Source: Escherichia coli (GTDB taxonomy: Bacteria > Pseudomonadota > Gammaproteobacteria > Enterobacterales > Enterobacteriaceae). From it: a stretch of DNA of 64,000 nucleotides. The stretch lies in NCBI RefSeq assembly GCF_041248615.1, contig NZ_CP158426.1. One strand, given 5' to 3'. The position numbers were made by a program. This document shows, piece after piece, positions 1 to 6,000 of this stretch (within the stretch, counting starts at the first letter, position 1; the number at the start of each line of letters is the position of its first letter).

Positions 1-3000
1 AACTGAGTGGCCTTGAGCGCACTGGCACCGGCGCGGAAGGATTCCGCTACGACCGCCACGGCAACCTGCTGGCCTGGACGGACGGTAACGGTGTTGTCTG
101 GACAATGGAATACGGCCCGTTTGATTTGCCGGTGGCGCGAACGGACGGTGAAGGCCACCGCTGGCAGTACCGCTACGATAAAGACACGCTGCAACTGACA
201 GAAGTCATTAACCCGCAGGGTGAGTCATATCTTTATGTTCTGGATAACTGCGGCCGGGTGACGGAAGAGCATGACTGGGGCGGCGTGGTCTGGCGTTACC
301 GCTATGACGCCGATGGCCTGTGTACCGCCAGGGTCAACGGCCTGGAGGAAACCATCCTCTACAGCCGGGACGCCGCAGGCCGCCTGGCAGAAGTCATCAC
401 GCCGGAAGGCAAAACGCAGTATGCCTATGACAAATCCGGCAGGCTGACGGGTATCTTCAGCCCGGACGGCACATCACAGCGCACCGGCTATGACGAACGC
501 GGGCGGGTGAATGTCACCACTCAGGGCCGACGGGCCATTGAATACCACTACCCCGACGAACACACCGTCATCCGCTGTATCCTGCCACCGGAAGATGAAC
601 GCGACAGACACCCCGGTGAATCCCTGCTGAAAACCACGTACCGCTACAACGCCGCCGGAGAACTGACGGAGGTCATTCTGCCGGGGGATGAGACGCTGAC
701 GTTCAGCCGTGATGAGGCAGGACGTGAAGTGCTCCGGCACAGTAACCGGGGTTTTGCCTGTGAACAGGGCTGGAATGCAGCCGGTCAGCCTGTCAGTCAG
801 CGCGCCGGACTTTTCCCGGCAGAAGCCACATGGGGCGGGCTGCTCCCCTCACGGGTACGGGAGTACCGTTACGACAGCGCGGGTAATGTGTCAGGCGTCA
901 CCAGCCGGGAAGATTACGGACGGGAAACACGGCGGGAATACCGGCTGGACCGGAACGGCCAGGTCACGGCGGTGACAGCCTCAGGCACCGGGCTGGGCTA
1001 TGGCGAAGGCGATGAGTCCTATGGCTATGACAGCTGCGGCTACCTGAAGGCGCAGTCTGCGGGCTGGCACCGGATAAGTGAAGAGACTGACCAGTATGCC
1101 GGAGGCCACCGGCTGAAACAGGCCGGAAACACGCAGTATGACTATGACGCCGCAGGCCGGATGGTCAGCCGCACCAGACACCGTGACGGCTATCGCCCGG
1201 AAACAGAGCGGTTCCGGTGGGACAGCCGTGACCAGCTGACCGGGTATTGCAGCGCACAGGGTGAGCAGTGGGAATACCGCCACGACGCCAGCGGCAGACG
1301 AACAGAGAAACGCTGCGACCGGAAGAAAATCCGCATCACGTACCTGTGGGACGGCGACAGTATTGCGGAAATCCGGGAATACCGCGATGATAAACTGTAC
1401 AGCGTACGGCACCTGGTGTTTAACGGCTTTGAGCTGATAAGCCAGCAGTTCAGCCGGGTACGGCAGGCGCATCCGTCGGTGGCCCCGCAGTGGGTGACAC
1501 GGACGAATCATGCGGTGAGCGACCTGACGGGCCGTCCGCTGATGCTCTTTAACAGTGAAGGTAAAACCGTCTGGCGACCGGGACAGACCAGCCTGTGGGG
1601 GCTGGCACTCAGCCTGCCCGCGGACACCGGCTACCCGGACCCGCGCGGGGAGCTGGACGCGGAAGCCGCCCCCGGCCTGCTGTATGCGGGACAGTGGCAG
1701 GATGCGGAATCGGGGCTGTGCTATAACCGGTTCCGGTACTACGAGCCGGAAACCGGGATGTACCTGGTGAGTGATCCGCTGGGGTTGCAGGGAGGGGAAC
1801 AGACTTACCGGTATGTGCCTAATCCGTGTGGGTATGTTGATCCGCTGGGGCTGGCAAAAACTTCTGTTCCCGTATCAATAGTAGAACCAAAAAAAATCAC
1901 TGGTAACTTTAAAACAATTCGAGAAAAATTAAGGCTTGCCAGGAATGGTGATGTTTCTGCACAAGCCGAAATTGCATACGCAAAATATATGCGTAGTTTG
2001 GGAAAGGATGTGCATTTCAATACACCTCCGAATCGCTCAGTATCAATGGCAGATTTTACAATTGATGGAATCCAGGTTGATACAAAATTATTGAGTGGTA
2101 TAGGCGGAAATGCTGCAAAAAATGTTAACAAGGGAGTTGGCCAGGTGGGAGATAATGGTATCGTCCTGGTAATTAGAAATTCTAATTCCAAAAATACACT
2201 TGAGGAATTTCATGAATTCTTTGGAAACTTCAAACCTAATAATTCAACAGTTCGAGTTGAAGTGATTGATCAATCCGTTTTAGAACCTTTTTGGAGATTT
2301 TAAAAATATGATCACCAAATCAAGTATACTCATAGAGTATAAAGATAAAAGTAAACTAACCGAAAGTATTTATAAGTTTGTAAATGCTCTAGATATTGAC
2401 TTTTCGATATTAAAATATGACTACTTTGATGTAAATGAGTATAAAAAAAATATTACTTATGACACATCTTTTATTGACAAAGATGCAGAATATATTGAAT
2501 TATTAGCGAAGATTGATTTTTCTTATGAAGTTGATTTCGGCACATCAACAACATCGATTGAAAGCAAGTATCTTCCATCTCTAACTGATTTCATCGCTCA
2601 ATCACTATCACAACAATTAAATTGTAACATAATAACCAGCTTTAAACCATTAAGTGGAGATGAGTTTTGCCCAATAACATATTTTTCAAAAGGTAAAGAA
2701 GTTATCAATTTTACGACATTTAATTCAAATTGTTGGGATGGGGTATACTGGGTAAAAAAAAGGAGGCAAACAAATATCCGCTAACGTAGTTTTTCAATAG
2801 CTACACCATGTCACGTAACATGATGCCTGGATATTAACAGAAAGACAGAAGTGGACTCAGCGGTGAGATGAACGCAGCCTGAGTCTGAAGTACGACCTGC
2901 CGGTGAAGATGCGCGGCCCCGGCGGTCAGTCAGTGCGGTTGCAGTGGCAGCAGCACCATAAACTGAGTGGCCTTGAGCGCACTGGCACCGGCGCGGAAGG

Positions 3001-6000
3001 GTTCAGCTATGACCGCCACGGCAACCTGCTGGCCTGGACGGACGGCAATGGTGTTGTCTGGACAATGGAGTACGGCCCGTTCGATTTGCCGGTGGCGCGA
3101 ACGGACGGTGAAGGCCACCGCTGGCAGTACCGCTATGATAAAGACACGCTGCAACTGACAGAAGTCATTAACCCGCAGGGTGAGTCATATCTTTATGTTC
3201 TGGATAACTGCGGCCGGGTGACGGAAGAGCATGACTGGGGCGGCGTGGTCTGGCGTTACCGCTATGACGCCGATGGCCTGTGTACCGCCAGGGTCAACGG
3301 CCTGGAGGAAACCATCCTCTACAGCCGGGACGACGCAGGCCGCCTGGCAGAAGTCATCACGCCGGAAGGCAAAACGCAGTATGCGTATGACAAATCCGGC
3401 AGGCTGACGGGTATCTTCAGCCCGGACGGCACATCACAGCGCACCGGCTATGACGAACGCGGGCGGGTGAATGTCACCACTCAGGGCCGACGGGCCATTG
3501 AATACCACTACCCCGATGAACACACCGTCATCCGCTGTATCCTGCCACCGGAAGATGAACGCGACAGACACCCCGGTGAATCCCTGCTGAAAACCACGTA
3601 CCGCTACAACGCAGCCGGAGAACTGGCAGAGGTCATCCTGCCGGAGGATGAGACGCTGACGTTCAGCCGTGATGAGGCAGGACGTGAAGTGCTCCGGCAC
3701 AGTAACCGGGGTTTTGCCTGTGAGCAGGGCTGGAATGCAGCCGGTCAGCTTACCAGCCAGCGCGCCGGACTTTTCCCGGCAGAAGCCACATGGGGCGGGC
3801 TGCTCCCCTCACGGGTACGGGAGTACCGTTACGACAGCGCGGGTAATGTGTCAGGCGTCACCAGCCGGGAAGATTACGGACGGGAAACACGGCGGGAATA
3901 CCGGCTGGACCGGAACGGCCAGGTCACGGCGGTGACAGCCTCAGGCACCGGGCTGGGCTATGGCGAAGGCGATGAGTCCTATGGCTATGACAGCTGCGGC
4001 TACCTGAAGGCGCAGTCTGCGGGCTGGCACCGGATAAGTGAAGAGACTGACCAGTATGCCGGAGGCCACCGGCTGAAACAGGCCGGAAACACGCAGTATG
4101 ACTATGACGCCGCAGGCCGGATGGTCAGCCGCACCAGACACCGTGACGGCTATCGCCCGGAAACAGAGCGGTTCCGGTGGGACAGCCGTGACCAGCTGAC
4201 CGGGTATTGCAGCGCACAGGGTGAGCAGTGGGAATACCGCCACGACGCCAGCGGCAGACGAACAGAGAAACGCTGCGACCGGAAGAAAATCCGCATCACG
4301 TACCTGTGGGACGGCGACAGTATTGCGGAAATCCGGGAATACCGCGATGATAAACTGTACAGCGTACGGCACCTGGTGTTTAACGGCTTTGAGCTGATAA
4401 GCCAGCAGTTCAGCCGGGTACGGCAGGCGCATCCGTCGGTGGCCCCGCAGTGGGTGACACGGACGAATCATGCGGTGAGCGACCTGACGGGCCGTCCGCT
4501 GATGCTCTTTAACAGTGAAGGTAAAACCGTCTGGCGACCGGGACAGACCAGCCTGTGGGGGCTGGCACTCAGCCTGCCCGCGGACACCGGCTACCCGGAC
4601 CCGCGCGGGGAACTGGACGCGGAAGCCGACCCCGGCCTGCTGTATGCAGGACAGTGGCAGGATGCGGAATCCGGGCTGTGCTATAACCGGTTCCGGTATT
4701 ACGAGCCGGAAACAGGGATGTACCTGGTGAGTGATCCGCTGGGGTTGCTGGGGGGTGAGCAGACTTACCGGTATGTGCCGAATCCGTGTGGGTATGTTGA
4801 TCCTTTGGGATTAGCAACATGTCCCATAATCAGACAACGGGTGCTGGCTAACCTTGAAGCCAGTCGGGCAGCAAGGGCTGCATCTAATTTTGGTAAGAAA
4901 AATATCTATGATTTTATCAAGGCAACTCAATCTGCTATCCCTGGCACCTCTATCCCAAAATCTTTTGAGATTATAACTGCTAATGGTACTTTCTGGGTAC
5001 ACCCAAATGCTACAAAACATATGGCTGAATATTTGACTCGGAACGGTCTCTCACATTCAACTTCTGTAGAGAGCCAAATAATGTTAACAAGTTTTCACGA
5101 AGCTGTAAGTTTGGCTAGTGCTCAAGGTATAAAGTATGAAGAAATGATGAATGTTGGCGGCTGGGAACTAGTATTTAGTCAAGCTAAATCTGACTCGGCT
5201 TTATCAGTTATTAAACATGCTCTTTATAAATGACGATTATGCTTACATTAGAAAATGAAACAAACTACAAAGATGTTGTTGTTAATATAGATGAATTTGT
5301 ACCTTTTGATATAACTTTTGGAAAGGGGAGCGAACAGTGTTTGTACTGGAGAGGCGGCAATGGTAAAAGTTCTTTGGTTGAAGTTGGGTTAAATATGTAC
5401 AGCGGAGAAGTAAGTAACATCACACTAGCAAATATCGATTCAGGTGAAATTAACATTACAGATGAGATGTTAGCCAACAACCTTCCTGAAATACAAGGGT
5501 CTGTTATATTTCAGACAAGCGAGTGGCTTAATAAAGACATTTCCGAATACTCAAACAGATTTATTGATGATTTTGATTGCAATATCAAGTTAATAATTGG
5601 TAGTAATTACATTAAATTATTATTTAAAAAAGCAACAAATCCCATTTGTTATATCATTAATAGGAATATAAGATTTGGTTTTTCTTTGAGTAGGGAACTT
5701 TCGACATTGGAAATATTAGACCTCAATCAAGAAAAATTAGATATTCTAAAGTTATTTAAATAGTTTTAGTGTTTGAAACTTACCGAGAGATGATAGCTAT
5801 GAATGAATACAAAAACATCCATCTTGGAGGAAACAATGGAATGTTAATCCATTAAAAAACATACTTCAATATCTTTAGTGAAGAAAGAGTTGTATGAAAG
5901 AAATATATCTTATGTGAGCGACATGATGCATGCTAATTATATTATTGGCCGGAAATTTTATGATGATAGCAAAAAGGAGGGGTTATTTCTGTAAGAATGG

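Follow-up and report, generated by a model that had tools for sequence, protein, structure and literature searches.

The window analyzed here is a 64,000-nt stretch of the Escherichia coli contig NZ_CP158426.1, at whose start an Rhs core occurs twice in near-identical form, each copy ending in a different toxin tip. This start of the window holds the 3' end of an Rhs effector locus of the E. coli type VI secretion system (T6SS). A first reading made from the sequence alone (here, the sequence-only reading) had called it an Rhs toxin locus, which is borne out by YD repeats, the Rhs-associated core, PAAR and class I prePAAR domains, and a neighboring vgrG gene. The window corresponds to the chromosome of E. 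coli NRZ14408 (NZ_LT599825.1) from position 3,843,666, with no mismatch in a comparison over 18.7 kb, and sequence upstream of window position 1 was read in that record and carries negative coordinates. In the RefSeq annotation, the locus is an island between cusS and nfrB, with the gene order cusS, vgrG, a "DcrB-related" gene, a gene for a 1,619-aa Rhs protein, an array of tips, and nfrB. Beyond the array, the remainder of the window is conserved E. coli backbone.

A full-length rhs gene ending in a predicted nuclease

The start of the main rhs gene lies 2,556 nt before the window; the gene is 4,860 nt long (1,619 aa) and intact in NRZ14408. Residues 54 to 310 of its product, encoded upstream of the window, match prePAAR (PF25799, 3.7e-5) and PAAR (PF05488, 2.4e-10), with a prePAAR motif of class I. 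Within the window, positions 1 to 1843 (copy 1) make up the final 1,843 nt of the YD-repeat core. The YD/Rhs repeat profile TIGR01643 was matched with an E value of 2e-70 by the full protein and with 1e-34 and 3e-35 by the two in-window copies, and the Rhs-associated core profile TIGR03696 with about 1e-18 in each of three modules. The core closes with a PxxxxDPxGL motif, PCGYVDPLGL, at positions 1824 to 1853, with a second instance at 4784 to 4813; in Rhs/Tc proteins, this motif is the expected self-cleavage site that frees the toxin. The cores, tails, immunity genes, spacer, and orphan reading frame described here all lie on the plus strand.

The identity of vgrG upstream of rhs was confirmed by profile search (TIGR03361, E value of 6e-188). 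The 153-aa gene between vgrG and rhs, "DcrB-related" in RefSeq, gave no match in a search of NCBIfam, and we read it as a putative Eag/DUF1795-type chaperone gene. The domains and neighbors together predict a class I prePAAR T6SS effector, which would be delivered into neighboring cells and kill them. The strain of the window has an intact main rhs coding sequence; in strains 4621, TUM1226, and MS 69-1 the annotation gives it an internal stop, and the tip 1 toxin may be nonfunctional in that lineage.

The tip carried by the main gene, tail 1 (1857 to 2303), is a 148-aa C-terminal toxin whose predicted structure points to a nuclease of the PD-(D/E)XK fold. Searches of Pfam, NCBIfam, PADLOC, and PHROGs gave no significant match to tail 1, and sequence and profile searches of the PDB gave chance matches only. 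Against the Pfam CdiA_C profile (PF18451), tail 1 reached an i-E value of 0.14 to 0.17 and the best of 26 relatives reached 5e-3; as the match of tail 1 is below threshold, we do not assign it to that family. The predicted model, which is a confident one, resembles the PD-(D/E)XK CdiA-CT nucleases, with that of Burkholderia pseudomallei 1026b (Bp1026b) the closest, and the model and the alignment together present a restriction-endonuclease-like fold with an E...D...(D/E)xK catalytic constellation. Across the aligned family, E39 and K78 never vary, D67 varies hardly at all, and position 76 is occupied by D or E. The spacing of the E-D-D residues is 28/9 in tail 1, compared with 27/9 for E187/D214/D223 of Bp1026b, under a residue mapping that is inferred and is not a structural superposition. 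A scan of 1.8 billion representative proteins recovered 54 relatives of tail 1, and a word-indexed protein search recovered only 9. In most full-length matches the domain is C terminal in a larger protein, some of these being Rhs proteins.

Four nucleotides past the tail 1 stop codon begins imm1 (2308 to 2784), an AT-rich open reading frame (ORF) of 158 aa, which is followed by a spacer (2785 to 2865) that moves along with it. No match to imm1 was found in Pfam, NCBIfam, PADLOC, or PHROGs or in the PDB. Homologues of imm1 with 49% and 33% identity lie directly 3' of tail 1-family toxins at two other loci, in one of which the carrier protein has no Rhs hit on record, and because the pairing is thus conserved we predict that imm1 is the cognate immunity gene of tail 1. 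Tail 1 and its relatives would then form a small, unclassified family of PD-(D/E)XK toxins with a conserved partner family of immunity proteins, as judged from the predicted fold and the alignment, both families being now annotated as hypothetical.

An orphan module with a different tip

The spacer is followed by an orphan module, that is, a 5'-truncated rhs lying 3' of the full-length gene, sharing its core and carrying a different tail and an immunity gene of its own. The first 26 or so nucleotides of its arm, from near position 2866, have diverged (about 70% identity to the main gene), and an in-frame TGA immediately precedes them. Together with the scar at 2892 to 2897, where 72 nt were lost in frame between ACGACC direct repeats, this diverged start occupies positions 2866 to 2897, as defined by alignment with strain SC422 and with the main gene. 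Position 2892 had been considered as the start of the arm and was rejected, as the SC422 alignment puts the start some 26 nt earlier, with the 72-nt deletion. Copy 2, the 1,911-nt core arm of the orphan, spans 2892 to 4803 without indel or stop relative to copy 1. RefSeq calls a 776-aa ORF with a GTG start at 2903 to 5233, which lacks prePAAR/PAAR and the first ~830 residues, and which is annotated as a pseudogene fragment in other genomes.

Tail 2 (4817 to 5233) is an EC869-type CdiA-CT tRNase domain (BECR fold), matching the toxin chain of the E. coli EC869 complex (PDB 7VMC_B) by phmmer with an E value of 8e-41 and about 60% identity over 125 aa. The EC869 toxin is a BECR-fold tRNase that cleaves the 3' acceptor end of tRNA in dependence on EF-Tu, EF-Ts, and GTP, with His216 and His281 implicated in catalysis (PMC9071432). 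The equivalents of both histidines are kept in tail 2 (motifs TKHM and KHALYK), and R271 is replaced by Ala, with a Lys adjacent. Tail 2 is therefore a predicted EC869-type tRNase that would share the requirement for EF-Tu, EF-Ts, and GTP. Overlapping its stop codon by ATGA is imm2 (5230 to 5763; RefSeq start, 5239), whose 177-aa product is a homologue of the EC869 CdiI protein (phmmer to 7VMC_C, E value of 3.4e-18). Tail 2 and imm2 gave nothing significant in NCBIfam, Pfam, PADLOC, or PHROGs. Of the two tails on which the sequence-only reading had called for profile searches, one is an EC869 CdiA-CT homologue and the other is a domain outside the Pfam families with a model-based PD-(D/E)XK match.

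No convincing promoter or ribosome-binding site was seen upstream of the orphan GTG. A scan of positions 1 to 6300 gave fewer promoter and terminator sites than shuffled controls, and it is therefore uninformative on orphan expression. Having neither PAAR nor the N-terminal third of the shell, the orphan as it stands is probably not delivered. Given in addition the lack of a prePAAR motif and of a recognizable promoter or ribosome-binding site, it is most likely silent as a toxin, although imm2 may still protect the cell.

Extent and divergence of the duplicated core

The alignment of positions 1 to 1843 with 2961 to 4803, offset by 2,960 nt, is ungapped and contains 31 mismatches (98.3% identity). 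The window edge truncates copy 1; in NZ_LT599825.1 the complete repeat pairs -67 to 1843 with 2894 to 4803, amounting to 1,911 nt with 34 mismatches (98.2% identity) and no indels. The duplicated core proposed in the sequence-only reading is thus real, with an identity slightly lower than the figure of about 99% given there. Identity per 100 nt ranges from 93 to 100% within the repeat and then drops to ~25% past nt 1843. Nucleotide homology stops at 1843/4803, the third base of the Pro codon in DPLGLA. The DPLGLA codons are synonymous but different between the copies (GATCCGCTGGGGCTGGCA versus GATCCTTTGGGATTAGCA), and the proteins diverge only from codon 1857/4817. A sharp divergence just after DPLGL had been proposed, and the sharpness stands, while the nucleotide breakpoint falls inside the DPLGLA codons and not beyond them.

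Composition changes along each module: the cores have a GC fraction of 0.62, tails 1 and 2 of 0.36 and 0.39, and imm1 and imm2 of 0.29 and 0.31, in keeping with the earlier description of a small AT-rich ORF after each tail. Among the 32 codons that differ between the copies, 24 differences are synonymous and 8 are nonsynonymous, so that the copies resemble functional alleles more than the products of decay. The amino acid differences that had been quoted, RDAAG/RDDAG at nt 373 and GELTEVILPGDE/GELAEVILPEDE at nt 666 to 685, are correct.

Alleles with and without a 2,960-bp unit

We surveyed 5,426 complete E. coli genomes, and in 68 of them the first 9.7 kb of the window is covered to at least 80% at one place. 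The duplicated arrangement is present in the five best-ranked genomes, three of which were inspected besides the window's own record, and the complete genomes that carry it come independently from Germany, the United States, and Japan. All other matches listed (about 60 genomes, 89% coverage) are single-copy alleles, in which tail 2 sits on the full-length gene and exactly 2,960 bp are missing, namely one unit of core arm, tail 1, imm1, and spacer.

The pieces of this unit are unevenly distributed. Only 6 genomes have the complete tip 1 module, 21 have the entire spacer, and 573 of the 5,426 have its first 54 nt. Many genomes carry a truncated 3' piece of tail 1 together with imm1 at the end of the array (the equivalent of 2117 to 2838; for example, L003:9001-9721). 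We do not claim that this widespread remnant preserves an immunity gene in orphan form; the copy of imm1 in the single genome examined is frameshifted by a 1-nt deletion.

The sequence-only reading had considered a 1.85-kb homology arm long relative to that of a third module farther downstream. Other E. coli strains do not support the premise that such a length is exceptional, as orphans at the same cusS-nfrB locus keep arms of 1.6 to 2.3 kb (1,569, 2,303, and 1,912 nt in DETEC-S792; 2,009, 1,792, and 2,021 nt in SC422), and it is the short third arm that stands out as old and eroded.

Mosaic structure of the core

The 34 mismatches between the two copies are clustered at -22 to 176, 373 to 797, and 1652 to 1820. 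In NRZ14408, the second and third clusters are separated by a perfect tract of 854 nt (798 to 1651), and a run this long arose in 0 of 200,000 random placements (P < 5e-6). In strain 4621, the perfect tract lies elsewhere, at 294 to 1228. We compared four sequences, both copies of NRZ14408 and both copies of 4621, the latter being identical to those of TUM1226 and MS 69-1. At 14 sites the two copies within a genome agree with each other against those of the other lineage, and 11 of these sites fall in 821 to 938; at 11 sites orthologues pair instead, and 10 of these fall in the last 190 nt before the tail. The 821 to 938 haplotype is largely matched in single-copy alleles, that of NRZ14408 agreeing with GMF065 at 10 of 11 sites and that of 4621 with AR_0067 at 9 of 11. 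This contrast between orthologue-pairing and paralogue-pairing sites indicates that the tip-proximal ~190 nt moves with the tip while the middle of the arm is copied within each genome. The pattern shows within-genome copying of the arm middle, either at insertion or by later gene conversion.

Comparison of the two lineages along the locus gives a complementary result. No difference between NRZ14408 and 4621 was found in 1607 to 2967, a block of 1,361 nt that holds tip-proximal core, tail 1, imm1, spacer, and arm start, nor in 4649 to 5763, while the arms differ at 44 and 35 sites (2 to 3%). Over -7300 to 9660, differences are concentrated in the GC-rich Rhs core, reaching about 4% per 500 nt, and the AT-rich tip, immunity, and array DNA is nearly identical. 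Such a comparison of strains with the same tip inverts the usual picture of a conserved core and a variable tip.

Against the single-copy allele of GMF065, copy 1 is closer at 41 to 373 and copy 2 is closer at 425 to 1820, and a single reciprocal exchange near 373 to 425 fits 30 of the 34 sites. We did not rely on this single-crossover fit for the direction of the event, as it suits insertion and excision equally well and its left side is weak.

Probable displacement of an older tip

The anatomy of the locus, its homologies, its population variants, and its mosaic pattern were observed directly, and they are best explained, with high probability, by C-terminal displacement, in which a newer nuclease tip pushed the previous tRNase tip downstream and left it as a silent spare with 1.9 kb of core. 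Because a unit of 2,960 bp is either present or absent, the duplicated form is taken to be the product or the precursor of a single homologous integration or excision of a tip cassette, and such an event fits both the exactness of the difference and the identity of the tip 1 block across lineages whose arms have diverged by 2 to 3%. A tip with part of a core, possibly in the form of a circle, would recombine with the resident core, and the old tip would be shunted downstream. The middle of the arm would be copied by gap repair or duplication of the resident core as the cassette enters or by gene conversion afterward.

In the arrangement that results, the main Rhs shell would encapsulate tail 1, cleave the toxin at PxxxxDPxGL, and ride the VgrG spike into neighboring bacteria, with imm1 protecting the producer from tail 1. 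A RecA-type exchange at any point of the 1.9-kb arm would remove tail 1 together with imm1 and leave the main gene re-armed with tail 2. Genome records do contain natural alleles in which the main gene bears tail 2, and these differ by exactly the 2,960-bp unit. The proposal that the long homology arm would be a substrate for tip-swapping recombination is supported, copy 1 belonging to the full-length gene and copy 2 being an orphan with a different toxin/immunity pair.

Several points weigh against this account. Tail 1 falls below the CdiA_C threshold (i-E value of 0.14), and its predicted nuclease function rests on the modeled fold and the motif, with either tRNA or DNA a possible target. 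The left side of the fit to GMF065 is weak, copy 1 differing there at 8 sites and copy 2 at 13. The core is heavily mosaic between strains, so that several histories of recombination would fit, and the sequences would accommodate insertion as well as deletion as the direction of the event. The orphan retains an intact GTG-start ORF of 776 aa, which RefSeq calls a gene here and which may be expressed independently. Secretion, toxicity, and immunity are inferred, as are the way in which the event ran and the time at which the copying took place.

The timing of the copying separates two explanations of the mosaic arms. One is ongoing gene conversion, in which an old duplication of single origin has its arm middles kept identical within each genome by repeated nonreciprocal exchange, and to which we give somewhat less than an even chance. 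A single origin of the orphan junction is argued by the 72-nt deletion scar and the spacer, which are identical in NRZ14408, DETEC-S792, and the 4621 group, and the lineage-specific perfect tracts and the 14 sites that pair paralogues rather than orthologues are what continued exchange would produce. Yet the tip 1 block has 0 differences in 1,361 nt despite the 2 to 3% divergence of the arms, from which the cassette looks young or recently transferred, and templating from the resident core at insertion would yield the same pattern of sites.

Such templating at formation is the second explanation, and we hold it to be plausible, if short of probable. A donor consisting of tip-proximal core, tail 1, imm1, spacer, and arm start would enter "ends-in" or as a circle, and the intervening core would be copied from the resident. 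That both arms carry the haplotype of their lineage at 821 to 938, shared with GMF065 or AR_0067, is consistent with this, as are the identical transferred block from 1607 to 2967 and the existence of single-copy alleles without exactly 2,960 bp; a model of this kind was already proposed by Jackson et al. (PMC2935791). Against it, 21 further differing sites lie outside the perfect tract in the region supposed to have been templated, so that extra patches of recombination are needed, and circular or junction molecules were not observed. The sequence-only reading had offered recent duplication or ongoing gene conversion. Copying of some kind is supported by the 854-nt tract and the 14 paralogue-pairing sites, but plain self-duplication is not, as single-copy alleles lack the 2,960-bp unit and the tip 1 block is 100% identical across lineages.

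A more far-reaching version of the displacement reading is that the 2,960-bp unit is a horizontally moving tip cassette, which enters by ends-in or circular recombination and whose arms are overwritten from the resident core. We regard this as possible but doubtful. If it were true, the GC-rich core and not the tips would be the fast-changing part between strains that share a tip, and NRZ14408 and GMF065 would be a natural before-and-after pair for one event.

Expression of the orphan from an internal start, so that it acts inside the cell as a toxin-antitoxin-like module, is unlikely in our view. The 2.3-kb GTG-start ORF is intact, without a stop or frameshift, and most of its codon differences from copy 1 (24 of 32) are synonymous, and there is a precedent reported for an rhs orphan of Salmonella (PMC7043789). 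The synonymous bias is explained equally well, however, by copying from functional alleles, no promoter-like or Shine-Dalgarno-like signal was seen upstream, with promoter counts lying under those of shuffled controls, and the same ORF is annotated as a pseudogene fragment in other genomes.

An assembly artefact, with a single core collapsed or expanded, has next to no probability: beyond the general difficulty of 2-kb repeats we found no point in its favor, and it is excluded by the 34 sites at which the copies differ, by the unrelated tails, and by the recurrence of the structure in five complete genomes, including independent ones from three countries, so that this potential objection raised in the sequence-only reading falls away.

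The rest of the array and of the window

A third and older orphan, defined by alignment as a short core arm with tail 3, lies at 8431 to 9100. Its arm extends for 248 nt in comparison with copy 1 and for about 330 nt in comparison with copy 2, 94 nt of the latter lying past the junction, so that the earlier figure of ~270 bp was roughly right. A PDB search with tail 3 gave no match. Tails 2 and 3 share a linker of ~31 aa, ATCPI.RQ..L.NLEASRAARAASNFGK, just past the DPLGLA junction (~94 nt; 4804 to 4897 and 8665 to 8758), which is not in tail 1 and is possibly a second recombination point or a shared pre-toxin linker. Following tail 3 is imm3 (9112 to 9681; DUF4304 in RefSeq), whose last 9 codons have been replaced by an IS2-type insertion. 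This element, of the IS3 family, occupies ~9642 to 10972 on the minus strand, in the 3' end of imm3, and strains free of the insertion sequence have an imm3 of 558 nt.

Between the second and third modules, small AT-rich ORFs at 6243 to 6686, 7298 to 7513, and 8004 to 8372 gave no match in NCBIfam or PHROGs. Also located there, at 7573 to 7872, is a 300-nt fragment of the PAAR region, 96% identical to nt 718 to 1017 of the main rhs gene and likewise present in single-copy strains. Simple tip displacement fails to account for a PAAR-region fragment amid C-terminal tips. At 11031 to 11242, a 212-nt core fragment, 94% identical to 316 to 527, lies directly before an ISAs1/H-repeat transposase gene (11385 to 12521). 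A 91-nt sequence at the end of this core fragment (11237 to 11327) is repeated, with 82% identity, next to the 3' end of the PAAR fragment (7868 to 7958), and in strain 120899 it also comes after the tip 1 remnant. An H-repeat end and a recurrent junction are both possible readings of it.

Farther along the window, the RefSeq annotation places a dinQ-like type I toxin ORF at 54731 to 54814, between mnmH and ybbP. This interval is presumably the site of the rhsD element in E. coli K-12, so that the rhsD site appears to be empty in the strain of the window. The carbamate kinase gene ybcF (33202 to 34108) is annotated as a frameshifted pseudogene, and the window ends within an IS1397 (IS3-like) transposase gene (63579 to 64000).

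Comparison with known systems

Because this type of locus, its mechanism, and its mode of evolution have already been described, the main value of the analysis lies in annotation, with an EC869-type tRNase and a CdiI-like immunity protein assigned to an Rhs orphan. As a lesser gain, the locus offers a clean natural data set on Rhs tip exchange, comprising alleles with and without the unit, a shared junction scar, and genome-specific identical tracts, which could be used to relate rates of switching and conversion to arm length.

The two toxin tips have their closest counterparts in contact-dependent inhibition systems. The EC869 CdiA-CT/CdiI pair (PDB 7VMC; Wang et al. 2022, PMC9071432) has both candidate catalytic histidines in common with tail 2, but the EC869 toxin is borne on CdiA, whereas tail 2 is borne on an Rhs/T6SS scaffold, and because the immunity proteins are only distantly alike, cross-protection between imm2 and CdiI is doubtful. 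The CdiA-CT of Burkholderia pseudomallei 1026b, a PD-(D/E)XK tRNase (PDB 4G6V), is the reference for tail 1. The invariant Lys of tail 1 is in the canonical DxK position, unlike K242 of Bp1026b, the sequence similarity of the two toxins is below the Pfam threshold, and no similarity was detected between their immunity proteins.

As a gene cluster, the locus resembles the vgrG/eagR-linked PAAR-Rhs-CT effectors of the same species (Ma et al. 2017, as summarized in PMC6730261), with the same order of vgrG, DUF1795/EagR, PAAR-Rhs, polymorphic CT, and immunity genes, the DUF1795/EagR gene being putative here. In that summary, the three CTs tested and the ten types listed are given as metallopeptidase, REase-3, Toxin_55, and putative DNase, RNase, and deaminase domains.

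As an example of tip exchange, it is close to the rhs arrays of enterobacteria described by Jackson et al. in 2009 (PMC2935791), who put forward the circular-intermediate displacement model for rhs tips and whose loci likewise show arrays of tips, partial cores that vary in length, and AT-rich DNA for tips and immunity genes. Among the E. coli strains of that comparison, attached and dissociated cores within a locus were always identical, whereas here they differ at 34 clustered sites in a mosaic, and here, unlike there, natural alleles with and without the orphan arrangement stand one 2,960-bp unit apart. In Salmonella Typhimurium LT2 (Koskiniemi et al. 2014, PMC3967940), a full-length T6SS rhs gene is likewise accompanied by a core-sharing orphan with a different toxin/immunity pair, and through recombination in the shared arm the main gene acquires the orphan tip. 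The LT2 arm of 522 bp at 95% identity is enough for this toxin switching, which was seen to occur in that strain, while at our locus, with different toxins and an arm of 1,911 nt at 98.2% identity, such switching is predicted.

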